Below are positions 5,134-53,807 of a stretch of 64,000 nt of DNA, one piece after another. The stretch comes from Paramecium tetraurelia (taxonomy: Eukaryota). How positions within the stretch are numbered: position 1 is the first letter of the stretch; every line of letters starts with the position of its first letter. The notes beneath the pieces were generated by a model. That model made no database searches. It had not been told where the DNA came from and worked only from the letters and a program-made list of their open reading frames with translations. The stretch lies in NCBI GenBank assembly GCA_000165425.1, contig CT868024.1:186001-250000 (forward strand), read 5' to 3'. The position numbers and the translations under genes were made by a program.

Positions 5134-6563
5134 TCAATTGATTTAGAACTAAAGATATCTTTATATAGGATTCTTGAAATTGAAGTTTACAGAACGATAA
5201 TGCAGTAATTTATGCTTCACCTCAAGATCCTAATTTTCTAATTGCATAAGTTAGAGTTGATCCCTGAGTGGCATGAATTCATCAACCTCAGAAAAATGAT
5301 TAGCAGTTTTATCTTTGCTGTAAGTTTTCTTAGAAAGAAAGTAAGAATCAGAATTCACAAAATCAACATAAATGCTGTCTGTACTCTTGATTGATCGTCT
5401 TTTATTATAAGATTCCATACTATTTAATTAAGAAGAGGGATTAGAGTTGCCATTCATTGTAGTTGATCTATTTATTCGAGATGCTTTAGATGGGGTTTTT
5501 TCTATTGACCTAAATCATTTAATTTATAAATACGATTAGATTTAGATTTATTAAGCGCTATCATATTTCTTGTTTTGTTACTGATTTACTTTCCATTCTT
5601 GTTTGGTTTTATAATTTTTATAATGACCTTTGTACCAATCAAAAATAAACCATTTTATATGCAGAGGATTATTTTCAAACAGCCCTTTTAGCTTTCGATA
5701 ATTTGGAATTTATTGTGATGTCAAATTCTGGATTTACTTCATGTAACTGCCAATTAAATCAATTAATACTTCAGAATCTGGGAAGGACATCCTTCACAAA
5801 GTTTTTCTAAAGGAATGTTTTTCTTCAATTATCCAATTTTCATTAAGCGATTCTCTTATATTTTCTCACATTTCATCCATGGTAACTCTTACTTAATCAA
5901 ATATATAAGGACATATCCTAAAGCTTCCAAATCATCTTTTCTGCTTTATTCTTCTCCAAAATGAGCTGATATACTTGCATATCTACTCGTTCCGATGAAT
6001 GGGATTTTTTAATTAGTAAATTTAGACTTTTTTGTTAAATCTTTGGCTATTCCGAAATCAATTAAATGTATTTGATTACTATTAACTCTTCCTAAAATGT
6101 TCTCTGGTTTCAAATCTCTATGAATGATATTTCTATAAATATTTAAAACATTTTTTTACAGCTCATGTGATTTTTCTAAAATCTCCAACATTTGATATGC
6201 AATATTGTAGACGCAATCCATAGTAAATTTTTTATGTTTTTTCAAAAAGTGCATCAAATCAAATCCCAGCATATTCGTAATCATTATTTATAAACCATTT
6301 TGTTCCCCAAACCAAATTAATTCTGGGACTCCTTGGACTCCTTGCAGTTCAATTAAAATGTCTATCTAAAATATTTCTAAAAGATGTACCTCTCTGTTTA
6401 AACTGAAAAATCTTTACATTTACTATTTTTCCACTTTTATAGCTACATTCTCTCGAGTTTATAAGTTTCTCCCCAGATATACCTTCCCAAAAGAACCTTA
6501 AGAAAGTAGTTTTAGAACTTTGTATAAATTGGCCACTATTTGTCCTTGCTAAATGTCAGACAT
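5134..6563 (-). CDS. CK1: Casein kinase 1 family Ser/Thr kinase
   Basis: [61 protein letters not shown], LPW; about 4 tiny introns; probable +1 indel near 5634 before the C-terminal tail. Confidence 0.92.
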
Positions 6564-30600: not shown

Positions 30601-33600
30601 ATTATTCTCAACTGTCTAGAAATTTGATGACTATTCAAGAGTAAAGGATTTTGCAAATGATGTCGTATCACTCAATGACCGTTTCTAAAATGCCTAAAAG
30701 AAGGTAGAATCATTTAATGAGAGAGAAATACTGTTTAAATAATAACCATCAGTTTATGAAGATTTGAATTAATTGATTAAGGATTTCACTATTTACTTCA
30801 ATTTGTGGACTAATGCTATTGAATTTGAGTATGATAGAAGTGATTGGTGTACAGGTTCATTCTTGAAGCTAAATTTCACTGAAATTGAAAACAAAGTTAG
30901 AACCAACTAAAGGAATGCCAATTTACTTATAAAGGCTTTCTCTGATGCACAAGATGACACAGCCGTAGAAGTGGCACGCAAGTTGAAAGGTCAAATCGAT
31001 GAGTTCAAAGAGAGATTGTGGTTGATTGAATTACTGACCACTGAGGCTATGAAAACTAAGTTGAATATGTGGAAAGACATCTGGAAGATTGTTGGAATTG
31101 TTGATCAAGAAACAAATGACGATTTATCATTGGATGCTTTGGTTTCTCACGGCCTTATGAATTTTAGGAATGACATCGAAGAAGTGTCAAGGAGAGCTGA
31201 GAAATAGTGGTAAATAGAAAAGAATCTCAATTCAATTCAAGAGAAGCTTAAGGATTAAAAAGTAGAAATGATTCCATACAAAAAGACAGGAACCTTTGTG
31301 TTGAAATCTTTAGAAGAAGTAGTGTAATGCTTTGATGATTAATTCAACATTCTATTGATGTTAAAGGCACAACCTTAAATCAAAGCTGTATTACATAAAG
31401 CATAAGCCTTGGAGTAAAAGATAGTGTTGATTTAGGACACACTTGATGGTTGGATAAAGTGTTAAAGAGGGTGGATGTATTTGGAACCTATTTTTACTTC
31501 TGATGATATCAAGAAGAAAATGCCTTAAGAAACCTTAAAATTTTAGAAGGTGGATACTCATTGGAAATAAGTGATGGAATAATTCAGCAAGGAGCCCAAT
31601 CTTTGGGACGGAGTAGAAAGTGATAAGATGAAGAATGAATTCGATTAGGATAATAAGGCTTTGGATTAGATTTAGAAATCTTTAAGTGAGTATTTGGAGA
31701 CAAAACGTAACTCATTCCCAAGATTTTATTTCTTATCAGATGAGGAACTATTGGAAATCTTGGCATAAACCAAAGATCCAGAAACAGTGTAGAAGCATAT
31801 TAATAAATGTTTTGAAGCCATCAACTTAATTAGAATTTGTAAATGGATAGGAAGTGGTAGCCAATGATATCAGCAGAAAAAGAAAAAGTACAATTTTTCA
31901 AAAGGAATTAATGTTAATGAAGGTGAAAAGAAAGGTAATGTGGAAAAGTGGTTGTGTGAAATTGAGTCTGTTATGATAGACACATTGAAGAAGATTATGA
32001 AAGCCTCACATTTGGATAACGATACAAAGAGAGTTGTTTGGGTAAGGAAATGGCCTGCTTAAATTGTATTGGCAGTTAATATGATCAGATGGACCAGAGG
32101 TAGTGAGCTGGCTATAAATGATAAAGACAATTAATAAGGAGGATTGACAGGATTTTTATAACAATTGATTAATGAACTTAGAGATATTGTTGATTTGGTT
32201 AGATAAGATTTGTCTCCTTTAGAGAGATTAACATTGGGTGCACTTGTTGTGTTAGATGTACATGCAAGAGATGTAATTAGACAACTAGTAAAAATTGGTT
32301 GCAATGATATTAACAATTTCTAATGGATGGCGTAATTGCGATATTATTGGACTGAATAGATAATGAAATGCAATGTCAAGATGATCAATGCTGATTTACT
32401 CTATGGATATGAGTATTTGGGTAATAGTATGAGATTGGTCATTACACCTTTAACTGATAGATGTTATCGTACTTTGATGGGAGCATTCCATTTACAGTAT
32501 GGAGGTGCACCTGAAGGTCCAGCAGGAACAGGAAAAACAGAAACTGTTAAGGATTTAGCCAAAGCATTGGCAGTTCAATGTGTTGTGTTTAATTGCTCTG
32601 ATGGTTTGAACTATTTAGCTATGAGTAAATTCTTTAAAGGATTGGCAAGTTCAGGAGCTTGGTGTTGTTTTGATGAGTTCAATCGTATAGATTTAGAAGT
32701 GCTCTCAGTTATTGCTTAATAAGTGCTCACCATTTAGGATGCTATCAGACAGAAGAGACCAGAGTTTGAATTTGAAGGTACCTCAATTAAATTGATTCTG
32801 TCATGTGCCATTAATATTACAATGAATCCAGGATATGCAGGTAGATCCGATTTACCCGATAACTTAAAGGCTCTATTTAGACCATGCGCTATGATGGTTC
32901 CAGATTATGCATTGATTTCAGAAATCTATTTAGCATCTGTAGGATTTTAAGATGCCAATAATCTAGCACGTAAAATTGTGGCCTCATTAAGATTGTCATC
33001 CGAACAACTTTCATCCCAGGACCATTACGATTTTGGTATGAGAGCCTTAAAAGCTATTTTGACAGCTGCAGGTAATCTAAAAAGAGTTATGAATGACATT
33101 GAAGATATCATATGTTTAAGAGCCCTTATGGATGTCAATATTCCAAAATTCACAATAAATGATGTGCCCTTATTCAATTCAATTACCTCAGATCTATTTC
33201 CAGGAATCAAGTTGCCTGAATAAGATTATGGAGCATTGGAGACAGCACTCAAAAATACGGCATAAGAGATCAACATTCAAGCAGAAAAAGGATTCATTGA
33301 AAAGTGTATTCAATTATTCGATACCATAAATGTTAGACATGGTCTGATGATTGTAGGATAAGCATTTGCAGGTAAATCCAAAGTATTGGAATGTTTGGCC
33401 AAAGCCATGTCTTCATTAAATAAGGTGTAATCTTTTGTGAACGTTGCTGTGCTCAAACTTAATCCAAAATCCATTACTTCAGATCAGTTATATGGTAAAT
33501 TGGATCCAGACACAAAGTCATGGACTGATGGAGTCATTGCTATTATTATGAGATAGTGTGCGTAAGATGCAGAAATTGAAGAAAGGAAGTGGGTTGTATT

Positions 33601-36600
33601 TGATGGACCTGTTGATGCAGTTTGGATTGAAAATATGAATACCGTATTGGATGATAATAAGAAGTTATGTTTGACATCTGGTGAAATCATTAAGATGACA
33701 AACTGGATGACTATGATGTTTGAAGTTGAGGATCTTGCTGTTGCATCACCTGCCACTGTTAGTAGATGTGGTATGGTCTTTTTAGAAACACAACAAATTG
33801 GATGGTATGCCTTAGTCAAATCATATATATAAACAATCCCTGAAAAATTCATAGAACATCACTATTTGGATGATCTATTAAGAGTCATTATTGATGCCAG
33901 TTAGGAATGGTTGAGGAAGAATGGTAAATTCCCAATTTACAAGAGTGAAATGACTCTGGTGAAAAACATGTTACTGATACTCCAAACTTATTTACAGGAA
34001 TGGACAGACATAGATGAGAAAGCATAATAGAAATAAATTAATCATAATGAAATTAAGGATGTAGTCTCTAAAGCTGTTCTATTTTCTTGTGTTTGGAGTT
34101 TTGGTGCAGCCATAGATGAAGTGTGTCGAAAACAATATAATTTATTCTTGATTAAGTTGATATCTGCAGAAGATGTTCAAGAGACCTTCAACTTATAACT
34201 GTAATATAAATTTACACCTGTCTCTATCAACGCTAAATTACCAGATAAAGCTAATCTATTCGATATGGTGTATGACAGAAATAAAAACAATTTCATCAGT
34301 TGGACTCAAACATAGCCTCCATTTGTCATTCCTAAAGGATGTGACTATCATGATTTGCTCATTCCCACTAGTGATTCTATTAGAAATAATTACTTTCTGC
34401 ATTTATGTGTAAGAAATAAGATACATTTATTGGTATCTGGACCAACTGGTACTGGTAAGACCTCGAATATTGTTAGTGAAATCAATAAAAACTATTTTAA
34501 CACTGAATATACAAATTTGATAACTGCGTTTTCAGGTTAAACTCTGGTCAATTAAGTCTAAAAAACTATAGAAGCAAAAGTTAACTCAAGGAGAAGAAAG
34601 GGATATTTTGGACCTGAGGAAGGCAAAAAATACATTGTTATATTTATTGATGATTTGAATATGCCAGCCAAAGAAAAGTATGGGGCATAACCTCCGATAG
34701 AATTGTTAAGGTAGTGGATGGATACACAAGGTTGGTATGATTTAGAAACTAAAGAACCTAAGTTTCTTCAAGGAATTACTTTTATTGCTAGCATGTTGCC
34801 ACCAACAGGAGGAAGAAATGTAGTAAGTATGAGATATTTAAGACACTATGTTCTCTTATATGTTGAACCTTTCGAAGGAGATTCATTACAACGTATCTTT
34901 TAAAATGTGTTGGAATGGTATTATGCAAGACAGACGAATCCATTTATGAAATCAATCACAAATCTCAGAGATTAAACAGTGAATGCAACTCTTGATATTT
35001 ATCAATTAATTCAGACTTGTAAGGAACTTTTGCCAACTCCAGCCAAATCACATTATATTTACAATCTTAGAGATATCAGCAAGGTGTTCTAAGGAATTTC
35101 TAAAGGAACTATTAAATCTTTCAGGGATGAAAATGATTTCATAAAGTTATGGGCACATGAATGTCAACGTGTGTTTTAAGATAGATTGATTAATGAAGAT
35201 GACTAAGGAACTTTCGACAAAATATTAAAGGAAACCATTTTGAAACATTTCAAACGAGATTGGAAACAATTAGTACAAATAGAACCACTCTTATGGGCTT
35301 CTTTTGTTCCCACCCTCTATCCTGATGATGATAAAACAAAGAGACCCATGACTGATATCTATTGTGAATTAACAGATCGAGAGACACTTAAGAAAGTATG
35401 TCAGGAACAATTAAATGAATACAATTCATAGTACACGAGTAATCGAATGGAGTTAGTGTTATTTATGAATGCAATCCAACACGTGCTTAAGATAGTGCGT
35501 GTGGTCAACACAACATTTGGTCATGCTTTGTTGGTTGGTGTAGGAGGTTCGTGGAAGAGAAGAGTTTGGCCTAATTGGCCTCCTTCATTGCATTCTAAAA
35601 TGAAACATTGCAAGTGGACTCAAGAAATTGGATTGAAGAATTGCAGAAGGTAATGAAGATGGGAGGAATAGATCAAAAGGAATTTGTGTTCATGTATTCG
35701 GATACTTAGATCATTAAGGAATCGATGGTTGAGGATATTTGCAATATCTTGAATAATGGTGAAGTACCTAATTTATTCCCACCTGAGGAGAAAAGTAAAA
35801 TCATCGAAGAAATGAGTAGTTACACATCTGGAACTCCAAACGAGAAATATAGTTATTTTGTAAAGTAGTGCAAGAAGAATTTGCATCTTGTGATTTGCAT
35901 GTCTCCTGTAGGAGAAGCATTTAGAAGGAGATTGCGTACCTTTCCCTGCTTTGGTTAATTGCACAACAATCGATTGGTTCTTGCCATGGCCAGAGGAAGC
36001 CCTTAGATCAACAGCTGATGCAGTGTTTACCAAGAGACATTGAACCATCTCGACTCTGACACTAAATTGAGATTGGGTTTGGTGGATGTAGCAGTCGACA
36101 TGCAAATCAGAGTGTCTGATCTAACCAAAAGATATTACAACGAATTAAGAAGATACTATTATGTTACCCCAACATCGTATTTGGAATTGCTCAACACATT
36201 CAAGAGACTCAAGTCAGACAGAGATCAAAATATGTCCAAAATGATATCTCGATATGAGGCAGGTGTAGATAAGATCATCATTACAGAAAGTGAAGTGAGC
36301 AAAATGTAGAAGGAATTGGAAGATTTGTAACCAAAATTGGAGTAGGCTACTAAGGACAACAGTATAATGTTGATTAATTTGTAAAAGAAATAGAAAGAAG
36401 CTGATGCAAGAAAGTAGGTTTGTCAATAAGAAGAGAAAGATTGTAATGTACAAAGAGATGGGGCAAATGCTTTGAGAAATGATTGTTAAAATGATCTAGA
36501 CAAAGTGTTGCCCATCTTGGCTCAGGCTGCTGAAGCTTTGGAAAAGATTGATAAAAATGATATGGTTTAATTGAAATCATTCCCTAAGCCTCCTCCTTCT

Positions 36601-39600
36601 GCTGCCATTGTCATGGAAGGATTGTGTTACATCTTTTAGGAAGATTAAAATGTGCCTTGGAAACCAAAAGAACCTGGCTCGATGGAAAAAGTGTAAGATT
36701 TTTGGGAGTATTCTAAAAAGAATCTTTTGAATGATAAGTTGATTAAAAGAATTAAGGATTTCAGAGATGATTCAATCAGATAAATTCCTTAAGTGAAGAT
36801 CAACAAATTAAAGGCATTCTCATAAAACCCATTGTTTTAGAAGGATAAGGTGTTTAATGCATCCGTTGCAGCAGGTAATTTGAGTTTGTGGGTTCGGGCT
36901 GTTGTAGAGACTTATGATGCTTTATTGGTGGTGGATCCAAAGAGATAACAATTATTGGAGGCAGAGTCAAAGTTAAAGGAGGCAGAAGAAACTCTTAGAG
37001 TGAAGTAGGAAGCATTACAGGAAGTGCTTGACATGTTGGCTAAGTTGGAGGCCGAATATAATAAGGCAAAGTAAGAGAAGGAGGACTTGGAAGCTAAGGT
37101 CAATAAGTGCAAAATCTAATTTGAGTAGGGCTGAGAAATTAATTACTGAATTAGGAGGTGAGAAGGAGAGTTGGAAGAAGAAGGCTGCTGATTATAGAGT
37201 TGATTCTAAGACAATTGTTGGTGATTGCATATTGTCATCAGGAATTGTGGCCTATTTGGGAGCATTTCCAATTGCCTACAGAGATGACACAATAAAAATA
37301 TGGTAGACTTTGTTGGAGAAATTGACTATTGAATTCGATCCTGAATTTTCATTGCAGAAGATCTTGTGTGATCCAATCACAATGGGACAATGGACAAATG
37401 TTTAAAAATTGCCAAATGATTCGTTTTCTATTGACAATGCCATCATTCTTAAGAATTCCACTAGATGGCCTTTGATGATTGATCCTCAAACCTAAGCTAA
37501 TACTTGGGTTAAGCATATGGAAGCTTAGCAATTAGTAATTGTGAGACCTACCCAATCGTAAAATGTGTTATCAAAGACCTTGGAAAGTGCCATATAATTT
37601 GGATAGAGTGTGTTGTTAGAAAATGTAGGTGAAACCATTGATGCTATCTTCGAATCTATTCTCTAATAAAAGATCATCAAACAAGGGTCAGCTTACAAAT
37701 TGAAATTCGGAGACAAAATGATTGACTACTCCAGAGACTTTAAGTTTTACATGACTACTAAATTGGCTAGACCTCATTATCCCCCTGAAATTTGTGTTAA
37801 GGTTACTATGTTGAATTTCCAAGTAACTCAGGAGGGTTTGGAAGATCAGATGTTGAATATTGTTGTGAAGATCGAGGAACCTGCCAAAGATGAGCAAAGA
37901 TAAAGGAATATTAAGGAATTCTTTGAAAATAAGAATAAGTAAAAGATGACAGAAGATAACATTTTGCAATTGTTGCAGGACTCAAAAGGAAATCTTTTGG
38001 ATGATGAAGTATTGATTGATACTCTGCAGAGATCGAAGGCGGAATCAATCACAATTTAGGATAAGTTGAAGAAACAAGAGCAGGATAGGGAACAATTTAA
38101 TTAAATTCGTAATTTCTACAAAGAAGTGGCCAAGAGAGTTGCTAATCTATACTTTGTTGTTTTGGATCTGTCCTTAATTGAACCTACTTATCAATGGTCT
38201 TTGGAGTTCTACATCATACTATTTGAGAGGGCCATTCGAGAGTCAATATAAGGAAAGGAGAATAGAAGCAAAAATATCATTGATAAGTTTTAGATATCCT
38301 TATACGAGAGTATTTGTAGATCTCTATTGGAGAAGGATAAGTTGATATATTCATTTTTGATGACAATGAAAGTGATGCAAAGTGAGGGTAAGATTACTCC
38401 ACAAGAAATCCGTTTCACTATGGTTGGTGGTACATACACAGATCCAACATATCCATAACCATAACCAGAATGGATATCGAAAAAGATGTGGTGTCTAGTA
38501 ACTGAAGCAGCTGACACTCTGCCATTCTTTAAAGGATTCCCTGAATCATTCTCTAAACACCTCTCTGATTGGCAAGAAATCTATGATAGCAGTGAACCAT
38601 AGACTCAACAATTACCTGAACCTTGGAATTCATAATTGACTGCTTTCTAAAAGTTGATTGTCTTGCGTATCATCAGACCTGATAAATTTGCAAATGCCAC
38701 TCAGAATCTGATCATAACAGAAATGGGCAAATAATTTATGGATCCTCCCCCCTTCAATCTAGAATATGCCTACAAAGACGCAGATGCTTATACTCCACTG
38801 ATATTCATATTGTCTCCAGGTGCTGACCCTCGTTTGGAAATATCAACATTGGCTGATCGTCTAGGATTTAGATAGAACTTCATTACTCTCTCCTTAGGTT
38901 AAGGTCAAGGAGAAATTGCCACTAATGCTATCAAGGGAGCTGTCAAAGATGGCAAATGGGTTTTATTGTAGAATTGCCATCTTGCACCATCATTTATGCC
39001 TGAATTAGAAAGAATTCACGAATAAGAAATATGTGCAAAGCCAGCTCAAGAGGTTAATTCAGACTTTAGAATTTGGTTGACTTCTATGCCCTCAAATGTA
39101 TTCCCAGTAACACTATTAATGAGAGGCATCAAGATGACATACGAACCCCCAAGAGGCTTAAAAAACAATATGTTGAGAAACTTCTCTTCAATTGATGCCA
39201 AGAGTTTTGAGTAATGTAAGAAACCTGTGGAATGGAAAAAACTGTTTTTCGGTTTGAATTTCTTCCATGCTGTGTGTCTAGAACGTCGTAAGTATGGACC
39301 TCTGGGATGGAATATCCCTTATGAATTCACATCAGCAGATCTAGCCATATCAGTGTCTTAATTGAAAAACTTCCTTGACACTTTCGAAGATATCCCTTGG
39401 GAGGCTCTTAATTACATGGTTGCTGAAGCTAATTATGGAGGTAGAGTCACAGATCCCAAAGATAGAAGATTAATTAGTATTCTGCTTAAATAATTTTATA
39501 CAACTGACGTATTGTAGATTGACAAACATAAATTAAGTCCAAGTGGCATTTATTATGTTCCTCCAAATGGAGTGTTAGAAGATTACAAAGAATATATCAG

Positions 39601-40658
39601 AAATCTCCCTCTGAATGATTAGACTGAAGTGTTCGGACTACATGATAATGCAGAGATATCATCAGCAATTATTGAAACTAATTTCATTACATCAACCATA
39701 TTATCCTTATTACCAAGATCAACAGGAGGTTCTGGTGTGTCTGCTGAAGACTTAATCAAAGAGAAATGCAAACAAATCTTATCTAAATTGCCTAATTAAT
39801 TCAACGTTGAGGATGCTGCTCGTAAACATCCTGTGCAATACAATCAGAGTATGAATACTGTCTTGCAATAAGAGTTGATTAGATTCAACAAATTGTTATT
39901 AGCTGTTAGACAGTCTCTCATCGATTTAGGTAAGGCAATCGATGGTTTGGTCGTTATGAGTACAGATCTGGAGCAAGTGTTCAATAAAGTGTTTGATAAC
40001 CAAGTCCCGGATGTGTGGCACAAAGTTGCTTATCCCTCACTTAAACCACTAGGATCATGGATCAATGACTTTATTGACAGATTGCATTTCATGCAGTTGT
40101 GGATTGATAATGGAGCTCCGCCAACCTTCTGGGTATCTGGGTTCTTCTTCACTTAATCATTTTTGACTGGAACTCTTCAGAACTTTGCTCGAAAAGTATG
40201 TAATTAATTAATAATTTAGTACCAAATCCCAATTGATACACTCTCCTTTGAATTCATAGTGATTCCTCCTTCATCTCAAGAATACGATCTTACAAAACCT
40301 CCTGATGATGGATGCTACGTTTATGGTCTGTTCCTCGATGGTGCTCGATGGGATGAGGAAAATAGATGTCTCAACGAAAGTTTACCAAAAGTACTCCAAT
40401 ACAAGGTGCCCTACTTATGGCTATTACCAAGTGAAGAGAAGAAGGATTGGGATGCTGATATATCGGTACGAATACTCATCTAGATCTTAGGTTTATGAAT
40501 GTCCAGTCTACAAGACATCGAGAAGAGCTGGTACTCTATCAACGACAGGTCACTCCACCAACTTTGTCATTTCTATATATTTACCCATTTCACCAGATCA
40601 TCACCCATATCATTGGGTCAAAAGAGGAGTGGCTATGCTATGCTAAACTGATGATTGA
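27675..40658 (+). CDS. Axonemal inner-arm (single-headed) dynein heavy chain, DNAH1-like
   Basis: [26 protein letters not shown]1 [19 protein letters not shown]2 GQAFAGKS, P3 GPTGTGKT, P4 GVGGSGRK (after indel correction), C-terminus [23 protein letters not shown]...[18 protein letters not shown]; several +1 indels; subfamily call inferred from the N-terminal QFNSEDP..F..R motif. Confidence 0.96.
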
Positions 40659-40712
40659 TTCAAATTTTATAGTGTTACGGATTAATATATATATTAAAAT
40701 CACACATAGTTA

Positions 40713-41234
40713 TCACATAAACAGTTTATTGTTTTTGTGTCTTAATAATCTAACCTCAAAAGAGACCTTTTTTTGAATAGCAACTTATTTTGGTCTATGA
40801 ACTGATTTTTAGGACTTGGTTTGATTTATTTTTAAAATACTCTTGATAGTCTGGGTGTCTGACCCTCCTTAATTCTTTCTCAAGTTCACTGAAGTCTCTT
40901 CTTATAATACTACTTAGAATTTAGTTTGAGTTACAATTGCATTTAATTTTTGACTCACAACCTATACTGCCTCGCTTATCCTTGCTTGTTCTTAATGAAC
41001 TGTATTTTATTCATTGGTTATTTTCTCTTCAGTAAACCTTTTATTGACGTCCTAATCTTCCAGAATGCTCTCCAATTCGGTTAACTCTTGAGCATCCTCA
41101 AGTAATTCGGAATGAGTCAAAGGCTTCTCCAACGCACATTGTCTGTGAGGAGCCATTTTAATTTGCTTATTGATAATTGGAAATTGAGGATTTTCCTTAT
41201 TGTTAGATGATCTATTAATACAGACAGATCCCAT
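40713..41234 (-). CDS. Small acylated protein with SILK and (after a probable 1-nt indel) KVSF PP1-docking motifs
   Basis: MGSVCINRSS...TIKSILKNK; as assembled it stops at 40756; removing one base near 40820 gives ...IQKKVSFEVR...FM-TGA. Confidence 0.6.
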
Positions 41235-41283
41235 ATGCTTGAAGCTTTATTAATTTTTTTATGAAAACAAACAAATATATAAG

Positions 41284-42645
41284 TCATTCTTATTCAATTT
41301 AATTAGGTGGAACAGTAAAATATTTAATCTTTCCTTGGTTCCAATCCTACAACACAATTCTAGCTGCACAATCTAAATCTGGAATGCCTCCTTTCTGCAA
41401 CTTCCCTCTAGCCAAAGCTACCTAACACAAGAACTCGTTCAAATTGTTGAATGTTTGAATTTTGTACAGTAAGAGTAACTCATTCTTAGAAACCTTTTTC
41501 AAAATTTCTCCAATTGGCTCCCTTGGATCCTCAATTTACTCAATCTACGAATAATATAAATTGGATGATACCTTGATGATATTCCTTAACAAAGTGCTCT
41601 CCTTATTCTCAGAATCAAAGACTACTCCTGGACAATCAATGATCTTCACCTAACTGTCAATAACCACTTCTTAAAGACCCTTTGTGAATCCTGGAGTAGA
41701 AGACACAGCACAAGCCTTGCTCCTCTTGAGACTGTTGATGACTGAACTCTTTCCAACATTGGGATATCCAATAACACCAACAGTCACACTGCTCTTAACT
41801 CCATCATTTTTTGAGTAATTCTTTATCAATTCCAATAGCTTGTCAGCTCCTATGGCTTTAGAGGATGAAGTCAAATCATCAGCCAAATCCTGTCTCTGAG
41901 ATAGGGTTTTCTTGTAAATGGAGGCTGATGATAAGTTGGATTATTATTATTAGGTATTGGCTTTGAAGAGAACAGTAGCAAATTCTCTTTCGCAAATGAG
42001 CCAACCATGCATCTGCATTGCCTGGAGGAACTAAATCGATTTTGTTCAACACCAATATTATCTTTTTATCTCCTGGCATACCGAGGATTTCTCTCTCCAA
42101 ATGCTTGCATCTACATGCCAATGGATCTCTGGCATCCAAGATTATCAACAATATATCAGCAGCCTTAAATTTAAATTGATTAAATTTACCTCTGCTACTT
42201 TCTTCACTTGGGTAATATATTTCTTATGCTCTTTGGTTAATTAAGTCAAATTCTCTTATTTGATTTATTCTTCTTCAACAACCACCTGAGCCTTTGTCTC
42301 ATATAGATTTGATTTGACTTCAGCCAAATTAAGATCGAGTTCCTCTTTTTATTATAATTTTTATATCTTTTTCTCCTGCTCCTCTTAATCCTTCTTCCTT
42401 TTCAGGGTCTCAATAACATTCTTCTTAAATGGATACATATTGGGGATTCCTATCTCTTTGGACGAAGCTACAATGTTATTAAGATTGAAAATACTTTTCT
42501 TAATTTATCCCAAGGCACTCATCTTTCTGGCTTCCTTTTTGAGCTTTTTGTGATGCTATTTAACCTTCTTCTCTATTTTGTATTTCTTATTCAATGCCAA
42601 TCTCTTACTTGTACGACCCTTAGGTTTGTTTGTAAACTTAGCCAT
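41284..42645 (-). CDS. NUG1: Nucleostemin/GNL3-like circularly permuted nucleolar GTPase
   Basis: SKRLALNKKYKIEKKVKQHHKKLKKEARK, IGIPNMYPFK, ILDARDPLACR, LVLNKIDLVP, VGVIGYPNVGKSSVINSLKR, IIDCPGV, DWNQGKIKYFTVPP; +1 indel near 41989. Confidence 0.93.
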
Positions 42646-42676
42646 TTATTAAAAATATTTTAATTTTTATATTATC

Positions 42677-44581
42677 TCAAACACCTGTTGCATACATCTT
42701 CACAATATCAAGTAATTCGTTTGGTACCTCACATTCACTGGCTATAAACTACGCTATGTTGGCAATACTCTATTTTTTATATCAATATGATTCTATACAT
42801 GTATGTCAATCAATTTGCTCAAGTACAACAACAAATGGAAATCTGCAAATCTGTGATGACTCGGTTTCTTTTAGTGTTTGTGTAAGAATGTCTTCAAGTC
42901 TTACTATTTAGCTACTACAGATCTGTTCTCCACTGGGAAATCGTACAACTTTAGAATACTATAATTTGAATTCGGATTGTATCCATGAGCAACCTTTATA
43001 AACATTCAAGTTTAATATTACATTCACAATAAAGAAGTCAGGCTCAAACTCTTTGACTGATTTTCCATTGTACACAAAAGAGGGCAAGACATCCAATTCG
43101 TTTTTAGCCTCTCTAACTTACAACACCTTTCTTCTTTCAGAATTCTAGAATATCCCATCTTGCTCCAATTGTTATCCCTAGTCAGAAACCATATAAACCT
43201 CTGGAACCACCTCATCAGGGTTGTCCTTCTTGGCTGAAAATGATATGGCTATTATTTTTACTTCTCAGCACAACTGTCAAGAACTTGCTCACCAAACAAC
43301 CCTCAGGATGTTAAATAGAATGCATTTGTTAGTATCGTGCTGCCTATCTCAATTCTTCACTCGATAGAAAACAATCATGATTGACATTTGTAAAAATCCA
43401 ACCTATTTTCTCCATTCCCAAGTTAGTTGCTATTTCATCAGCATGAGTTTAAGCAGGATCTTACAACAAATCAACATGACCAAATGTTCCTTTTTGAGGA
43501 GGTTCATATATAGCTTCGACTATGGCTCTGACACCGTTTTGATAATTAGGGTCTGCAGCGTAATATCCGTATAAGAATCCCATTCTCTATTCTGTTTTTC
43601 CTTTGCTAGTCCAATATTGCACTAAATTCGACATTTCTGGGATGTTCAGGAACTCAACATAATCAACATGTCTGTAAATTTGTCTCTTTAACAAGATGGA
43701 TGGTGGAAGACAGTTATTGCACATGGCCTTAGGATACGGAGCATGATTTTTGCAATCTTTCTTGAGTTTATAAGATATCTAGGATTAAGGTGGAATGGGA
43801 TTACCATAGTTGGGGGAAGACAGTTGTTACATCTCCCATTGTCTGGGTGTTATCCACGACATTTGAATTTCATATCATGCAAATATTGATCAAATGAAAG
43901 ATGTTTGGCCTCTATTTGTCCCTCGTCTATGCAATGTGGACACTTTCCATTGGGCCCATGTTGACAGAGGATCTTATTGGCTGTTTTAGTATTCTTCTTC
44001 TCCTATTCATAAGGTGCACAATTCAAACAACGACCCCCCTCTCCGTGCTTGCATTTATTAATCTCTGTTTTCTCCTGCTGTTCTACCTTGGTTGATGTTG
44101 TAGATAAACAGTTAATACATTTTGCTTGTGGACCATGTTGGCAAAATTAACTCAATGCACTAGGATTGTAATATGAATTCAATACTGGTCTTTGTTTTCG
44201 TGGATTTTATGGTCAACCTGTTAAATCTATTAAGGATTTGCTTCTTTTCCAAATGCCATATACACTTTTGGTTGTTCAGGAGTTTAAATTTGTTATGGTT
44301 TTTATTGAACTTTCTTTTGGTCAACGGAGACATTGATGAAGGCTCCATTCCTATTTATTTGTTATTATTTATTACTCAAATTTGGAAATGTTTTTGATTG
44401 GCGTAGTGGGAGATATTCTCAAAGTTAACACCACTCCATCTAAAGATAATGTTAATGATTCAGGAGGTTTATTCAAAATTTGACTAATTTTGTTTACAAA
44501 TTCTTAAAATGTTTGAGTAGAAAGAATAGAGACTCTATTCATTCCAACCTCCGACCTTATCATAACTATAATCTCTGACAT
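42677..44581 (-). CDS. NPL4: Nuclear protein localization 4 (Cdc48/p97 cofactor)
   Basis: N-terminal UBL-like MSEIIVMIRSEVGMNRVSI; CKNHAPYPKAMCNNCLPPSILLKRQIYRHVDYVEF; QRMGFLYGYY...GVRAIVEAIYEPPQ; tiny introns. Confidence 0.92.
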
Positions 44582-44702
44582 TTAAACCTTATTAAATTTA
44601 TTAATTGAAATTCAATTTCACATTAGTATTACAATATATGAATGAGAATACTTTCCTTCGATAATTTGTATAATTATGATTAAAAATAACAAAAACTAAT
44701 AT

Positions 44703-47700
44703 TCATAACTTATCGAGTAACTATTGTGTTTATTTCAAAGGAGTCCAACTCATATCCCTGTTGATAATTTTTGTATAGATGTGGGTTTCAATTCCATTCA
44801 TATTCTGTTTCCCAACCTATAGCAGATGCACTATGAAAGCGATGTAATTTGAAAGACTATGAACTTCATCCACATGCTCATGGAATTGCAAACCCTACTT
44901 CTCGAACTCCCATCTAGAAAACTATACTTAAGATCTGATACCTCTCTAATGAACAAATGACGCAAACATTGTTTCTGTCATACTCGTTTTGTTACTACTT
45001 ATCTCTCAGTTCCGCAAATGTGTCTATTATGATACCATTGATGATGTTGATCATAATGAGAGTTACAATTATGAAAAAACTAAAATCAAAGAGAAATCGT
45101 GGGTAATAATCAGATGACTTGTGATAACTTTCAATATCCCCATGTGCTGCTAATCCAGATCCTTCTCTCAACCCAAAATACACCAAACTTATAAAGCAAT
45201 GAGCAGGAGTATCACAGAGCAATTCCTCTTCATGAATATCGTCTTCTGGATGCACTATTACATCCAATTAAAAACTAGTTGCAAATCTCCTGAATCCTAT
45301 GTAACTGTACGCATTCAAAATAATGAGCAAAACACTGAAAATTCCCAAGAATTACTACCATCTCAATCGCAATGCCTCCAATACTGAGGACATTGTCTAA
45401 GAGATGTAAATAAAACAAAAGCTTTGCAGGTAAAAACAGAAGGGTTCAAAGGTTCCTAAAACGCTCAGGACAAAATGCAAGAAAAATTAGAAAATGTCTC
45501 TCCTCTACAATATCTTGAACATGATAACAAATGTGTTGTAGAATGTGTGCTTAACCTCCTTGCAGCTGATTTGATAATAGATACTCATTCTGAAAAACAA
45601 TTGGCAAATCAAAGCCAAAAGTGACATGAATATCAACAGTATTTGACAGAGTGTCAATGCCAAAGAATGAGACTCTTGGTACTTCATTGAAATGCGATTC
45701 TCCTCATTTTCTATTTTCATAAAAGCTGTATTCGATATCAAAAGGAGTACTATGATATTCAAGGCAGTAATCGACGTAGCCAATTGGGTGTGATTGAAAC
45801 TAAGTTTAAATAAGGGGATAGTTACTTGGGTGATATGGCAACACTGATTAATCTTTGGAAGAATAAGGATTTTCTATATTTGGACATGTTTTCTTTCATC
45901 TCAGTCATGAATTGAGGGATGGAGTCAAATATGGATGCCAACTTAGATGCTGGATTTGATCTGTCAATGGTTTCTATCAAGAATTGTAATTTGGTTTCCT
46001 CAGATAAGAAAAAGCACATTGGAGGTTTGAGAAAATGGAAAATCTCAATCTAGTCCTTCTGATTCACATATTCGATAGATCCAACTATATTAAATATAAA
46101 CTAAAAGGCTGACTTTACCAGATGATCTCCTTCTCTTTTGAATAATTGTGGTTGTCCTTATTAGCATTACTACTTTTGATCCTTTAAGTATTGACATATT
46201 TCAAGACTGCTGGTAGCATACAAATTCAACATCTTGTAGATTTAATAAAGTATCTTGATAAGCATCTTGGAATCGAAAATCAATGACTCGTTAATATTGT
46301 CTCCTAATTCTCTTCTATACTTCTCAGTCAATTGACTGTCAATTGTAGATAAATCCTTCAGGTCTAATTTATTAAATATTATCAACGCTCTATACGTCTA
46401 TGTGAGGGTTTCTTCTAATAGTTTGTGATTGATGAGATTCATTATGTATTGGAAGTCATCTGGATTTCTCTCAGGATCTTCAAGCAATGACAAAATCAAT
46501 TGAAATATATAAAGTCGAAGTGTGTACACACTATTCTATTGGTTCTCATTTGTCCTTACAGTTAAGATTTGGATGATGACTTGCCAAACCCTATTTTTAC
46601 TTAATTCATTAAAGGTTAATTTTTAATTGTTTTATTACGAGCCTTAGTTGAATTCAGCAATAGTTATGATTGTATGAGCGAACAATTTAAGGAAGGCCTA
46701 GGATACATCAATTCCATACTAATCCCCTTGAGTACTGTGAATCCCAAATTGCATAAACTCATTCTAAGTACTTGTTTGCTTCTGACTGTTCTTCCTTTTT
46801 TGCAAGAATTTCAGTAGGTAATCAGTAGTACTACTATTCTTCTTCTTCAGTTGCATAGTTCTTACATTGTGAACTGCTTTTTAAAAGCTAGCCTTGGTTT
46901 GTGATTTAATTTTGTTTTGATTGTTAGTCTCCCTTACTATTTCCAAAATCTATTTCGACTTAAATAAATCAACTAATAATTTGAGAATGCACAGCAACAG
47001 GCCTGATTCTCCCACATAATTCTGCATTTCTTAATTTTGACCCTCTGCCAAATATCTTATGAATTCAAGGACAATTATTGAATATTTACCACTGTTGATT
47101 ACTATTGACAAATAAGGCTAATCTTGATATACGATAACCTTTTTAAATAAAAATGGAATGATTTTGGTTGATAAGTATTGCAGGAAACTGTCAAAGTTCT
47201 TTTAAAAATTTGGATATTTTGGATCTTGTTTTTGAATATTGGTGTTGATTATCTATTGTACTGGTTTCGTTTCTGCTTGTATTAATCTCTACAATTATAC
47301 TATATAATTGATATGAGACATAAAAATTGTATTTGGATATTCCAAATTGCGATTTCTCTAAAACTAAGTCTATTATTATAGCAATTCAATTAAGACATTT
47401 ATGAATATTAGACTGTATTACTCTTTACTCCTATTGCGATATTCCTTTTTAATCAATTGCACTATTGCATTCTACTCCAATATATCGTTGTCTAATTCAA
47501 TCCGCTTCAGTTTAAATTTCAATAACACCTTATTCAAAGCCTAGAAAACACTCTTGTCTTTGAATCTAACAATATCATCGATTGCCTTCTATGAAATTGC
47601 AACGCTTAAGTTGTTCTCCTTAATCAAAAATATCTCTGGTGGACTTGAGTTGTCATGCTTATTGGATAAGGAGTAGTTCACAAGAGTCTTGAATTTCTCC

Positions 47701-50700
47701 ATCACTTATACCAACTCTTCGAATCCTCCCAAGGGACCCTGAAACAATTTCAATTACTTCAATTATTGACTAAAGTATTAGTGGATCTATTCTATTTTCT
47801 CTATTATCGATGCTTATTCTAAGAGATCCTAAGTCTCCAACAATTGGTTTCTGTTGAAATAATCAATAATCAGATTCATAAATCGAATAAAGGTATGTGT
47901 CAACAATACTGTTGCTATTGCTAACCCTTCTTGACTGCCTAAGTCCTTTTGCATTTAGAATATTTCATTCAATTATTTCATGGTGAAGGATTGCTGAAAT
48001 ATAAGCGATTAGTTTAATGAGTTAATTGAAAAAAAGGACATTTGTGATAATTAATTCTAGGGACTACCTTAATTATTTGAAATTCCATTCTAAATTAGTT
48101 CCAAAGAAGTAGTAAATGACATAAACGAATATCTATTCTAATTTTGATTGATGAACACATCATAGGATGAGGAATCGGGAGTATATTGATTCCCTTTTGT
48201 GAAGATGTCAGTCGAATGATTAAGCACCTGAGGCAATATTTTGTTGTATAGATTCTCACATATTTAATGGAATTGTAGATAATCGTGATTCATTTCGTTT
48301 GATATTATGATCAACTCCAAGATTGCAATGAGCAATTCGAATATTTAATGCTTATTATACAATATGCTAGATGCATGCTTTTAAGTTAACTCTGAGCAAT
48401 CATCATATTGAGTATCCAACATTTCATTCAAATTAATGAGATGCTGCAATAAGAATTAGGGATTTAAGAAGCAATATTAATAGACATTAATAAACCCACT
48501 TTTTAGTATTACATCAAAGTGAAATTTGATTATGATGTTCCTGAGAGTGCATTAACCATAATAAGGTAGTTCCTTTTCTGCAATTCTTTAAAATATTTAA
48601 TAATTTTCTACTGTATATATCTAATTTATCAATTATTGATTGAAATTGATCATCCGGTTTAGTATTTCAAACATCAAAGTTGTAATATTAATTATTATTT
48701 CTAATTGAGCCAACTTAACGAATTAATTTTATATAAGGAACTAACAATATCGTATGATGATTTAATCTAAGCCCTTCTCATAAAGTACTTGTTGAGTCTA
48801 TTTTATGATTTTCATATCCGATTTCAAATGTTGCTTTAATTCCTCCTGCAGATTCTTTGCTGATTGACTAGGTTAAATTGTATAACTACTTTTTTTTTTT
48901 TTGATTTTCACAGATTTTCTCTTGATTAGCCTCAAACTTCTCTAATTCCCTAAAATACTTTGTGTTAAGAAGTTCTTTACATAATTTCAATAGCCTTTCT
49001 AGATCCCCTTCTTCAATTTCAAATGAGATTTCAACTGAATTTAGAAAGTACTTATTCCATTCAGCCTTAAAGTTTTCAACTTGACTTATAAACTTATGTA
49101 AATAATAATGCTTACATCCTAATTTAATATGGTCAGCCTTTCGTATTTCCATAGCAACAGATCTTCAATCTACAATTACATAATCTAAGTCCTCAAAGTT
49201 GTGTCAACAAAAAGATTTTCTCTCAACATTATTTAAATGATATGATTCAATTTGGATTGCGGATTCATCATCTAATTATAATACTATCCATTCAAATTAT
49301 AGTTTATGACTATGTTAATAAAGACTCTCCATATGATTTAGAGCTTCTCTGATTCCCCACTGTAAAATAAATCTATTTGCAAATTCTTTTTCTTCTTCTC
49401 AAAATAGAAAGACGCAGTGTATTTATCAATTAATGAAATCTATCTCTTCTCATTCCTGTTAATCTACTCATTCAGAATCTCATAAAATAAATCGTCCTTC
49501 ATTTGAAAATATGTCAATATCAATATCTTACTCAAGAGGTTGAACATCTACTCTGTGAAGAACCTTTGAATCTACCCAAAGTTCTTCTATTGGTTATAAT
49601 AGTCAATGTCTTTGCATAGTTTCTCCAAATTGAGGATCACCTTAAACACTACTTGAGTCTTAATCAATAGCCCCGTTTACAATCCCATTTTCACACATTT
49701 CAACAAGACTATCAACAATTTTGAGAGGATTGGGTTGGTGATTTCAATATCAAATAAGATTCTATAGTATCTCTTAATCAATTCAGTCAATTCCACTTGC
49801 AAAATTCCATTATCCAAACATTGATTATACTTCCTGATTTAGCTCCGCTGTATTGGAGTGCTATTCTCGATGTCCAAGGTGTCAATTTTTCTAAATTTAG
49901 AGAATTCATATTTAAGTTGTATGGATTGTATTTTCAAAATCTTCAAGACCAGCTGAGAGAGTTTCTCTTTGGCTGATTCTTATAAATTTTATGATAATAT
50001 GTGATATTAACCTAAACATAGTTAGAGATTGATTACTCACTAAGAATTTAATCTAACTTGACGTCATGCATTGCCACATCTTATCATCAAGGTATGTTAG
50101 ATTGTACTTTAATTTTATAAGTAGTTATTCTATAAACACATGGATGGATGCAATTTCAGTATACGGGAATCTCTTCTCTGTGAAAAGTTCTAAGATTTTT
50201 TCATTCAAATTTTATTCATCCTATTAAACATCTATTCTAATAACCATAAGCAATAATGTATTACAGTTTTTAAGACCAGATGCATGTTTAATTGAAGTCT
50301 CCTGTCTCCAGTTCATTGAAAATATTTTCAAATGTATTTTTCAATTCTCCAAAGAGGAGTTCGAAAAGATCAAAATTATTTAACAATGCGTTAATAATTT
50401 TTATCATGACCAACTCATCTTCAGGCTTGTATTTAAGCGTCTTTGTGATGTTGTACTTCTTTAATTATTCATTGTAATGCACTCTGAGTTAGTATTTGGA
50501 ATGCAATTAATCGCACTTACAATCTTCCCCAGGGATATATTTATGAGTATGCTTGCAATTTTTAATACAGAATGAACAAAGATTAGTCTTACAAGTAGGG
50601 CAATTTGAAATAGGACAAAAGGTTTGAGAATTCAATGGACAGGGTTGAACAACTAGTTATTTTTGTTTATGCTTGAACAGTCCGCATTCACACTTAAAAT

Positions 50701-50920
50701 TCCCCCTGAGTTTTAGTAATTTTGCTTGTTAGTGATATACATTCCTAGTTTTCTTATGACAATGCTCAAAACAGTATTTACAAATCCCATGAGGATAATC
50801 AAAGCATTATCCGCATTAATACATTTCCTATATTATCATTTTATTAGTTTGTAAACTACAGTCCTAAGACTTGAATGTTTGGTTAAATTCAGGTATTTGT
50901 GATCTTCTACTATTCAACAT
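44703..50920 (-). CDS. IP3 receptor/ryanodine receptor-type Ca2+-release channel (CRC) with N-terminal UBR-like zinc finger
   Basis: RIH-associated-like LEFIRYLAEGQNQEMQNY; TM region; pore CDTPAHCFISLVYFGLREGSGL...RFLFDFSFFIIVTLIMINIINGIIIDTFAELRD, then CVICSLER...HVDEVHSLSNYIAFIVHL; probable indels near 48890 and 47300. Confidence 0.88.
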
Positions 50921-51052: not shown

Positions 51053-51999
51053 TCATTTATTTGACCACTCTATTCCATTCTCACCGATTTAATAGAGAAT
51101 TGATTTATCAAATGGCAATCTGTCATTCAGTGATTTATGAATCTTCATGATTTTTGATTATTTCGTAGAAATCAAATGGATGATAGTACTAGCGAAAGTG
51201 TTGATATATTAATCATATTTAGTTGCTTGTATGTACTGCAATTAATCCTAGACTGATCTGATTGAGATTACAAAAGTGTTTTGTTAAGACTCAGTCAATT
51301 CATGAAAATATCTCATTAGTTCATTAATGATATGGTAGAAATTATAGATTTCTATTTCACTTTCGTAATACAAGGTCATTAATCCATCAATAAAAATAAT
51401 AGTCTTACTAGGTATGTTCTTGATTAGTTACTCGAAGTCTTTGAGACAATCAACAGCCTTATATTAAATTCTGCTTAATATATCAAGGGTTGCTGCCTCA
51501 GAATTCGAACTTTTAATCATTTTGTATATTCTTTAAGCTGACAAGGTACATGAACAATCATAATATATCACATTCGAATTGCTAATCTAATTAGAGAAAT
51601 AGTTTTCAATGGCTGAAAACATCATGGAAGTTTTGCCACTTCCAATATCACCTAGAATAAGCGAGATATTATTAAGTGGTAGACATTCATACTCACCTAG
51701 GACTAAATATTAGTATAATTTTGGTTGCGGATTTTAGTGTAGTTGATTCAGAATGTTCTATTCCATTTCCCTTATTGTGGCTATTTCTGAATCTATTTCA
51801 TTGAACAGTGCATCAACATCATTTGGTAACATTTTCTGCGAAATGAGTTTTTCATAGAACTTCTATCTTTTTTACTTCAAGAAATCCAAGACACTTACAA
51901 CTCCATTCCCTTTGAATCTCTGCAAGACAGCTTTTCTATTCCCCCCAAGCAAAACACTTATCTAATTTATTTTAGATTGCTTACAGGAAAGTAATTCAT
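51053..51999 (-). CDS. RecA/RAD51-paralog family ATPase (RAD51D/XRCC2-like)
   Basis: Walker A ISLILGDIGSGKTSM, VIYYDCSCTLSAQRI, Walker B IIFIDGLMTLY, C-terminal YQIGENGI; 23-nt intron at 51962-51984. Confidence 0.75.
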
Positions 52000-52018
52000 T
52001 TTAATTATTTTTATATTT

Positions 52019-52027
52019 ATTCCCGCC
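52019..52027 (+). promoter_or_regulatory. E2F-like site (ATTCCCGCC) in a 35-bp bidirectional promoter
   Basis: Only GC-rich word in the spacer 52000-52034 between the divergent ATGs of the RAD51 paralog and PARP; fits the WTTSSCGC consensus. Confidence 0.45.
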
Positions 52028-52034
52028 ATTTAAT

Positions 52035-53807
52035 ATGACATTCTAATCTAGTCTCCCTGAGATTGATATAATACCAGAGGGTGAAAACAAGGATCAATCC
52101 TACCTTTAATAATTATTGCATAACAGGACTCCCAATCCCAAAGCTTAAGAATAACAAGAAATGCTCATTGAGGAACAATCGCCCCCTGTTAGGAGGAAGT
52201 TGTTTTAAGAGAGAAAACTGTATAAAGGTGAAAGTGACATCGAAGAGGAAGTCGAAGAAATCAAGCAAATGGCAAAAGTAAAATCGGATAATCGATCGGC
52301 ATTGCCAGGATATTAGGTTCATAAAGATTACACAGTGATGCTCAATTTGACAGATATTTCTTATGGAGTCAAGGGTCACAACAAGTTCTATTAGATATAG
52401 GTCTTGAAGAAGGATGGTGACTACTTTCTATTCACTAAATGGGGAAGAGTAAATATCATTATACAACAATTTAGACTGGCGCATCGAATCCATAGTAAGA
52501 AATCAAAGAAAGCGATCTGGTCACAGCTATAAAAGGGTTTGAGAAGAAATTCCGAGATAAAACCCATTGGGATTGGAGAGAGAGAACTGAATTCAAATAA
52601 TAACCAGGGAAATATTGCATAGTCGATGTTTTGGGAGGAGGAGGAGGTTCTGTGAATAGTGAAATAGAGAAGTTGAATTAAAGAAATGGAAGAATTGCAG
52701 CCAGGATCAAGAACTTACCTTCCACTCTAGATCCTCCAATATTTGAATTGATGAGTGAAATTTGGGATATTCAAAGGATGAACAAAACTCTTAAAGAATT
52801 GAACTTTGATACTGATAAGAATCCATTGGGTCGTTTGTCTGTGGAGGCCATCAAGAAAGGGTTCAAAATACTCAATGAAATTCAATAAGCCCTAAGAGAC
52901 TTCAAATATAGTTTATTGGTTGATCTTACTAACGAGTTCTATACAAATATCCCTTAAAACTATGGCATGAAATTACCACCTAAGATTGATAATTATGAAA
53001 TCTTAGGCTAAAAGAACTAATTATTGACTGTGCTATAAGAATTAGAATTGGCTAATCGATACATCAACAGTACTTTGGCTGAGAACAGTGACGTCAATCC
53101 TCTAGATTAATTTTACAGACTATTAAAAACGAATATTAGAGAGTGTTAAGATTTCGATGTCATTTCTAAAATTGAACATTCTATCAATGTATCGCATGGT
53201 CCAACTCATGAGAAATTTAAATTGTAAGTAGCAAAAGTCTATGAAGTTGAAAGAAAAAACGAAAAAATTAGATTCTTTCCATTCAAAGCCTTAGAAAATA
53301 GAAAACTATTGTGGCATGGATCAAGAATCACAAATTTTGTAGGAATATTATCAGAAGGATTAAAAATAGCACCTCCAGAAGCCCCAAGTACTGGTTATAT
53401 GTTTGGAAAAGGAGTTTATTTTGCTGATATTTGCTCCAAATCAGCTGGCTATTGTGTTGCCAACATTGATCATCCTTATGGATATGTGTTATTATGCGAG
53501 GTTGCTCTGGGCAACACCTATTAAATTTATAAAGCTAAGGATCATGTTAGACCCCCTCAAAATTACCATAGCATACATGCAGTAGGCAGAAATCATGCAG
53601 ATCCTAAAACCAGAGAGAAGATTAAGTATATATATTTGAAGATTAATTATAAATAGTAACCTAGATTTTGAGTCTGGAAAAGTCATCCCAAATGAAGAAT
53701 TAAAGATCCACAACATTGAATCAAGTCTAATTTACAATGAATATGTGGTTTATGATGTTGCTTAAGTGCAAATTCACTATCTAATAAAACTTAAATTTAT
53801 ATTTTGA
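52035..53807 (+). CDS. PARP: Poly(ADP-ribose) polymerase, PARP2/3-like architecture (WGR + regulatory + catalytic)
   Basis: HNKFYQIQVL...[84 protein letters not shown] (H-Y-E triad intact). Confidence 0.95.

Follow-up and report, generated by a model that had tools for sequence, protein, structure and literature searches.

The stretch of Paramecium tetraurelia DNA analysed here (the window) comprises 64,000 nucleotides (nt) of contig CT868024.1. It carries on its minus strand the gene of a calcium-release channel, CRC-VI-3 (44703..50920), which spans 6218 bp from an ATG at 50920 to a TGA at 44705-44703. The spliced coding sequence is uninterrupted and consists of 6066 nt, corresponding to 2021 codons and the TGA. 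The frame is joined across six GT...AG introns of 22-28 nt and requires no insertion or deletion. Translation of the spliced sequence gives a protein with 100% identity, over all 2021 amino acids (aa), to the database record 'calcium-release channel VI-3 [Paramecium tetraurelia]' (P0008). As that record is cDNA-based and its sequence the same, a conserved Cys/His head and a pore of the inositol trisphosphate (IP3) receptor/ryanodine receptor (IP3R/RyR) type belong to one polypeptide, in which no IP3-binding region is detectable.

Judged by this identity, the gene in the window is the already published P. tetraurelia CRC-VI-3 (TPA CCC21104.1 / G7ZUA6). The available text of Ladenburger & Plattner 2011 gives CRC-VI-3 a start at 1, a stop at 6218, an open reading frame (ORF) of 6063 bp, a product of 2021 aa, and six introns of 22, 23, 25, 26, 28, and 28 bp (PMC3213138). 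The span and the six intron sizes of the window gene equal those in that text, and residues T579, L680, and P2010 of the spliced model agree with the residues quoted there. The DNA of the window resembles that of a ciliate: its G+C content is 0.24-0.36, and only a code in which TAA and TAG specify glutamine keeps reading frames open.

Colinear annotated orthologues of 2020-2021 aa are present in P. octaurelia (97.4% identity), P. primaurelia (91.9%), and P. pentaurelia (92.0%). In P. tetraurelia, the gene was originally annotated, by automatic means, as a 688-aa protein (P0006) and a separate 1221-aa protein. The 688-aa annotation stops near the point at which retention of intron 4 ends the frame (aa 689). 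It is only 96.8% identical to aa 1-682 of the cDNA-based protein, with four gap positions, and at least one of its introns was therefore mis-called in addition to the early stop.

Channel domain of CRC-VI-3

The transmembrane channel domain (aa 1681-1935; 44992..45756, on the minus strand, as are all features of the gene) is identified by Pfam Ion_trans and by matches to RyR1 and IP3R3. Ion_trans, with an E-value of 2.6e-6 and 27.2 bits against a cut-off of 25 bits, is the sole Pfam family reported for the full protein. Exon 6 matches RyR1 with an E-value of 6.5e-17 and IP3R3 with an E-value of 5e-16. IP3R3 is also matched by a profile built from the orthologues, with an E-value of 8e-30, over profile positions 1573-2016, which include the pore loop and the finger that follows transmembrane segment S6. 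The pore loop, G-L-R-E-G-S-G-L-A-A-H-G-D (aa 1875-1887; 45136..45174), lies within the channel domain. The finger of the post-S6 linker, CxxC...H...H (aa 1945-1970; 44859..44964), is encoded across intron 6, and all four of its ligands are in register with IP3R3 2538-2563. On the alignment of the pore domain and the linker finger, the last ~450 aa of CRC-VI-3 are a true IP3R/RyR channel, and the protein is a member of this superfamily.

Upstream of about aa 1570, CRC-VI-3 has no recognizable similarity to IP3R/RyR channels. The MIR, IP3-binding core, RIH, and RIH_assoc domains have no Pfam match in the full protein at E<=1, and exon 5, which encodes 1040 aa, has no match among PDB sequences at E<=1. 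An initial annotation of the window, made from the letters alone, had described a channel lacking the IP3-binding/MIR head, in agreement with the Pfam result for the full protein; the RIH_assoc domain that it expected in the same chain is not detected by Pfam. According to the available text of the 2011 paper, conservation within CRC-VI is confined to the channel domain, and CRC-VI-3 is N-terminally truncated (PMC3213138). The outcome of the Pfam and PDB searches upstream of the channel agrees with this remark on channel-only conservation.

Cys/His head and its relation to known zinc fingers

The first 200 residues of CRC-VI-3 contain 17 cysteines, compared with 0-5 per 100 aa elsewhere in the protein. 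Within aa 21-140, 17 Cys/His positions are invariant in the four aurelia species and P. bursaria. In the five-species alignment, they form module 1 (aa 21-84; 50669..50860) and module 2 (aa 94-140; 50501..50641). The peptides quoted in the initial annotation are present in the minus-strand frame that starts with the ATG at 50920, and the two Cys/His clusters that it described are real and correspond to the two modules. The invariant residues of module 1 are C21, C36, C39, H44, C47, C50, C54, H55, C77, C79, and H84, and those of module 2 are C94, C107, C110, C115, C118, and H124. Residues C122, C134, C136, and H140 of module 2 are confined to the aurelia species, and the module is degenerate in P. 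bursaria. H63 of module 1 is also not kept in P. bursaria. The ligand order of module 2, C...CxxC...CxxC-x3-C-x-H...CxC...H, repeats that of module 1. The similarity between the two modules is not significant, as its score was reached by 75 of 500 shuffled sequences.

The relative in P. bursaria is a 366-aa fragment (P0001), detected by BLASTP with 32% identity and an E-value of 6e-26. Its identity to the aurelia species over the N-terminal region is 32-39%, and in this alignment the invariance of the Cys/His residues exceeds chance expectation. Conservation within the N-terminal region is highest in module 1, with 45% identity between P. tetraurelia and P. bursaria, compared with 22-26% further downstream. 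There are no changes in module 1 between P. tetraurelia and P. octaurelia. A search of a representative library of 1.84 billion sequences with the N-terminus as a query returned two sequences only: the 366-aa fragment from P. bursaria and a metagenome peptide of 36 aa. No homologues of the N-terminus were found among 417 candidates of 383-2000 aa, a size range that leaves out the 2021-aa orthologues. Region 1-230 of P0003, used as a query against 222 candidates, retrieved P0003 itself only. Metagenome scans with the N-terminal alignment and with the back-translated motif of the 36-aa peptide gave no matches.

The head of CRC-VI-3 is a cysteine-rich, probably zinc-binding region. Pfam searches at E<=1 assign no zinc-finger family to the head in the full protein or in the P. 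bursaria fragment. We compared two profiles, A2 (the five-sequence N-terminal profile) and A4 (module 1 only), with a set of 177,635 PDB sequences. All eight sequences matched by profile A2 at E<=10 are dystrobrevin (0.011, 0.073), KCMF1 (0.04), or PRT1 (0.18), and the matches are sub-threshold. In the alignment of A2, residues C21, C36, C39, C47, C50, and the following His sit on ligands of the PDB matches. Profile A4 matches 18 sequences, 11 of which are dystrobrevin, KCMF1, or PRT1 (E 0.034-4.3). A phmmer search of the PDB sequences finds KCMF1 only (E 0.4), and module 2 alone matches none of them at E<=10. In dystrobrevin and KCMF1, the matching segments are presumably ZZ domains. The matched domain of PRT1 is a ZZ domain that reads N-degrons, according to the available text of the source (PMC12370974). 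Among RING-like treble clefs, the finger of CRC-VI-3 plausibly belongs with the ZZ/UBR-box/B-box group.

We propose that CRC-VI-3 starts with two Cys/His modules, the first of which is a treble clef of the ZZ/UBR-box/B-box type, and that they constitute a binding head in place of the IP3 domains. We assign this reading, which is drawn from sequence comparison, a probability of roughly 0.6. The two modules would stand where canonical receptors have their β-trefoil/IP3-binding domains. The most likely fold of module 1 is a RING-like treble clef that holds two or three zinc ions and in which a ZZ-type ligand order with a single cysteine in the first knuckle would be supplemented by the invariant downstream CxC-G and His. 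Module 2 may be a shorter and less conserved copy of the ligand pattern of module 1. The head is expected to bind zinc and to face the cytosol, as N-termini in the IP3R/RyR family do. It could function as a protein- or peptide-binding module that tethers, targets, or regulates the channel instead of binding IP3.

Several results weigh against this proposal. The Pfam families ZZ, zf-UBR, RING, IBR, and B-box have no match in aa 1-218 or aa 21-142 at E<=10. The best E-value for the finger is 0.011 against the 177,635 PDB sequences, and none of the finger matches is significant. Profile A4 scores best with a ferredoxin-NADP reductase (0.025) that is unrelated, and the zinc-ribbon protein bL32m accounts for six further rows (0.8-8.5). 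The look-alikes proposed by a language model are IBR/RBR clusters with scores of 0.82-0.87, below the level of a trustworthy lead. AlphaFold2 predictions from five-sequence alignments have a mean confidence score (pLDDT) of 39.3 for aa 1-218 and 35.8 for aa 15-95 and are unusable. Among the 1.84 billion representatives there is one relative with less than 50% identity, and the conservation of the head rests on a single genus. In the available text of the 2011 paper, the authors suggest that CRC-VI-3 is possibly drifting to a pseudogene, given that 8 of 15 clones carry premature stops (PMC3213138).

Module 1 also departs from the individual families. The eight-ligand order of ZZ fingers, CC-CC-CC-HH with an N-terminal CxxC knuckle, is not found: the first knuckle is C21 alone in all five species, and no second cysteine lies within three residues of it in the alignment. 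Pfam profiles do not place module 1 among the RING or IBR fingers, for which the support is limited to the look-alikes at 0.82-0.87 and an automatic database name. This name, 'RING-type domain-containing protein', is given by one source to the 688-aa fragment, and it shows that some profile has already flagged the finger.

Transcripts and alternative readings

The published protein is reproduced only if intron 1 (28 nt, GTA...TAG; 50237..50264) is removed. The initial annotation had recognized this intron and followed the frame through it into the channel body, as in the present model. Further downstream, it had presumed two indels; the frame changes there are caused by intron 3 (23 nt; 49093..49115) and intron 4 (22 nt; 48868..48889), and the resulting product equals the published protein. 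The remaining introns are intron 2 (25 nt; 50012..50036), intron 5 (26 nt; 45800..45825), and intron 6 (28 nt; 44914..44941). Contigs of run X5 lack four of the six introns: they omit 25 letters at 50010 for intron 2, and 22, 26, and 28 letters at introns 4, 5, and 6, respectively. Introns 1 and 3 are outside the cover of these contigs. A candidate 31-nt intron at 48980-48950 gave a model of 2018 aa and was rejected in favour of the 22-nt one (48889-48868), with which the published protein is recovered.

The available text of the 2011 paper reports seven of 15 cDNA clones as full length from start to stop (PMC3213138). Intron 3 is kept in three of the clones, intron 4 in two, and a 26-bp intron-like piece called 'x' is spliced out in another three; all of these aberrant forms (8 of 15) carry premature stops. 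The published cDNA, together with the 100% identity, bears out the claim of the initial annotation that the finger and the IP3R/RyR-type channel share one chain. The stops computed on the window sequence are at aa 627 if intron 3 is kept, at aa 689 (TGA 48780-48778) if intron 4 is kept, and at aa 761 if 48611-48586 is spliced. This 26-nt stretch, GTA...AAG, lies inside exon 5 (48586..48611). It was selected because it is the sole 26-nt stretch in a list of intron candidates that start with GTA, end with (T/A/C)AG, and have an A+T content >= 0.7, and it is probably the fragment 'x' of the paper.

Three oligo-dT RNA runs have 66, 192, and 93 reads over the gene, which indicates low expression and thin cover. 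The first mate is on the plus strand in nearly all of the reads, which fits minus-strand RNA, and the finger region is covered too, in bins 50402-50855. No read-level splice joints are listed for the three runs, and without them the oligo-dT runs alone do not demonstrate continuity of the transcript.

It is conceivable that the finger works chiefly as a separate soluble protein, produced from transcripts that retain intron 3 or 4 or are spliced at 'x'. We consider this unlikely, and the normal degradation of Paramecium transcripts with premature stops counts against it. The reproduced stops at aa 627, 689, and 761 would yield finger-bearing products without the channel, eight of the 15 clones are of these kinds (PMC3213138), and the original annotation was in two parts, of 688 aa and 1221 aa. 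The separate transcript ending at a TGA near 48780, which the initial annotation had named as an outcome that would contradict a fused protein, finds partial confirmation, as intron-4 retention stops there, but full-length cDNA exists. Such clones make up seven of the 15 (PMC3213138), and the frame is intact and colinear, with 2020-2021 aa, in four species. In the available text of the same paper, antibody and GFP fusion place CRC-VI-3 in early endosomes (terminal cisternae), in the oral region, and at the contractile-vacuole pore. The patterns of the GFP fusion and of the antibody against aa 579-680 are similar and correspond to membrane compartments (PMC3213138), which argues against a soluble product as the main form.

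Module 1 could also be a true UBR box that binds N-degron residues, with this binding, or zinc or redox state, gating Ca2+ release. The available text of Kaur & Subramanian 2015 derives the UBR box from a RING-like treble clef of the ZZ/B-box type by splitting of the first zinc knuckle (PMC4506424). Extensions at the N- and C-termini of the UBR box bind a third zinc, its length is 70-80 aa, and it co-occurs with many unrelated domains (PMC4506424). Module 1, with the order C...CxxC...CxxC...C-H...CxC-G...H over ~64 aa, has the lone first cysteine and the late CxC of UBR boxes. As an argument from pattern, its ligand arrangement is compatible with the split knuckle and the third zinc. The weak ZZ matches include KCMF1 and PRT1, and the ZZ domain of PRT1 reads N-degrons (PMC12370974). 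We nevertheless regard a true, gating UBR box as quite improbable. The zf-UBR match proposed in the initial annotation is not reproduced, as Pfam assigns no family to the region even at E<=10, and there are no UBR-named chains among the eight PDB matches of profile A2 or the 18 of profile A4. The acidic residue by the second CxxC is not fixed: D41 of the aurelia species is a proline in P. bursaria, with a glutamate two positions later. The coupling of the finger to gating is purely inferred, and the control by N-degron, zinc, or redox that the initial annotation put forward finds no support here. It is very improbable that module 1 reads free protein N-termini and that such a peptide or protein N-terminus (one laid bare by proteolysis, for example), and not IP3, triggers or tunes Ca2+ release from early endosomes. 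Family resemblance would likewise lend only a slim chance to the gating of CRC-VI-3 by a free peptide N-terminus.

That the Cys/His clusters form no discrete finger, and are a disordered, redox-active, or decaying leader on an incipient pseudogene, is similarly doubtful: AlphaFold2 pLDDT is below 50 throughout aa 1-148, no family model matches, expression is low, and pseudogenization is suggested in the available text of the 2011 paper (PMC3213138), but the 17 Cys/His residues are invariant at 32-39% identity, module 1 is unchanged in P. octaurelia, the spacing is regular with CxxC pairs and then His, and a low pLDDT is expected from a five-sequence alignment.

Neighbouring genes and comparison with known systems

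An NPL4 homologue lies just downstream of the channel gene (42800-44611, minus strand) and is composed of several small exons. It is recognized by the Pfam families UN_NPL4 (5e-5; 44321-44611), zf-NPL4 (1.4e-16), and NPL4 (6.2e-22; the latter two at 43215-43874). The Cys-rich zinc region found in the NPL4 homologue bears no relation to the finger of CRC-VI-3. Upstream of the channel gene, an ORF resembling P-loop ATPases (51053-52093, minus strand) matches ATPase_2 with an E-value of 1.3e-7, just below the family cut-off, and weakly matches nSTAND3. The end of this ORF is separated from the channel ATG by 132 nt, and the intergenic region and the promoter are therefore very short. A poly(ADP-ribose) polymerase gene (52421-53671, plus strand) encodes WGR, PARP regulatory (1.1e-35), and catalytic (1.8e-48) domains, and an open frame from 51747 suggests that it has further exons upstream. 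The G+C content is 0.32-0.36 at 28000-46000, compared with 0.24-0.29 in most other parts of the window.

What the large cytosolic head senses is the defining property of IP3R/RyR channels, and Paramecium has 34 such channel genes, many of them without an IP3 site. CRC-VI-3 would be a Paramecium-specific channel of this type with a ZZ/UBR-like zinc-finger head, the finger being predicted and seen in one genus. If the conserved zinc-finger head is real, its small size and expressibility would allow a partner to be fished out, and from this partner it could be learned how a protist targets or gates an endosomal release channel. The head would, in addition, exemplify head-swapping during IP3R/RyR superfamily evolution, and a head that reads N-termini would introduce a ligand class not known for these channels. 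The value of the finding is limited by the occurrence of the head in one genus and by the weak expression and frequent mis-splicing of the gene.

The gene, its splicing oddities, and its localization are already known; the finger is the new detail. The initial annotation held the fusion to be absent from the literature. The gene was in fact published in 2011 as CRC-VI-3, and the finger is indeed unmentioned in the available text of that paper. The words 'zinc' and 'cysteine' have 0 occurrences each in Ladenburger & Plattner 2011, which calls the N-terminus 'truncated' (PMC3213138). We found no mention of a finger on CRC-VI-3 in the literature on Paramecium Ca2+-release channels, in a search that left most subscription reviews outside. 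None of the papers found on UBR boxes, N-degrons, and ion channels, judged by titles and the starts of abstracts, is about a channel carrying the domain.

The UBR box (PF02207), the finger of N-recognins, shares with module 1 a similar length, a lone early cysteine, two CxxC pairs, and a late CxC-G and His. It differs in that module 1 has no Pfam or PDB match to UBR boxes and that the nearby acidic D41 is not invariant. UBR boxes have so far been described in ligases and assorted soluble proteins, and the partner domains named in the available main text of PMC4506424 include no ion channel. The ZZ fingers of dystrobrevin, KCMF1, and PRT1 share with module 1 an aromatic-x-CxxC, a spacer, a CxxC, and the following His ligands, in matches that are sub-threshold. 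Unlike them, module 1 has one cysteine and not CxxC in its first knuckle, extends over ~64 aa, and contains the additional invariant CxC-G and His; the Pfam model ZZ (PF00569) does not match it.

CRC-VI-3 has in common with metazoan IP3R/RyR channels the juxtamembrane region, the six-transmembrane pore domain, the pore loop, the post-S6 CxxC...H...H finger, and the C-terminal tail. The pore loop of CRC-VI-3 has extra residues relative to the aligned motif of IP3R3. In contrast to the metazoan channels, CRC-VI-3 has a Cys/His-rich N-terminus and no detectable β-trefoil/MIR, IP3-binding core, RIH, or RIH_assoc domains. CRC-VI-3 has 2021 aa, whereas the matched full-length IP3R chains have 2671-2750 aa and the matched RyR chains about 5000 aa. 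The gene in the window and the published CRC-VI-3 have the same sequence, span, introns, and quoted residues (available text of PMC3213138), and the present analysis adds the two predicted finger modules to the description of the protein.

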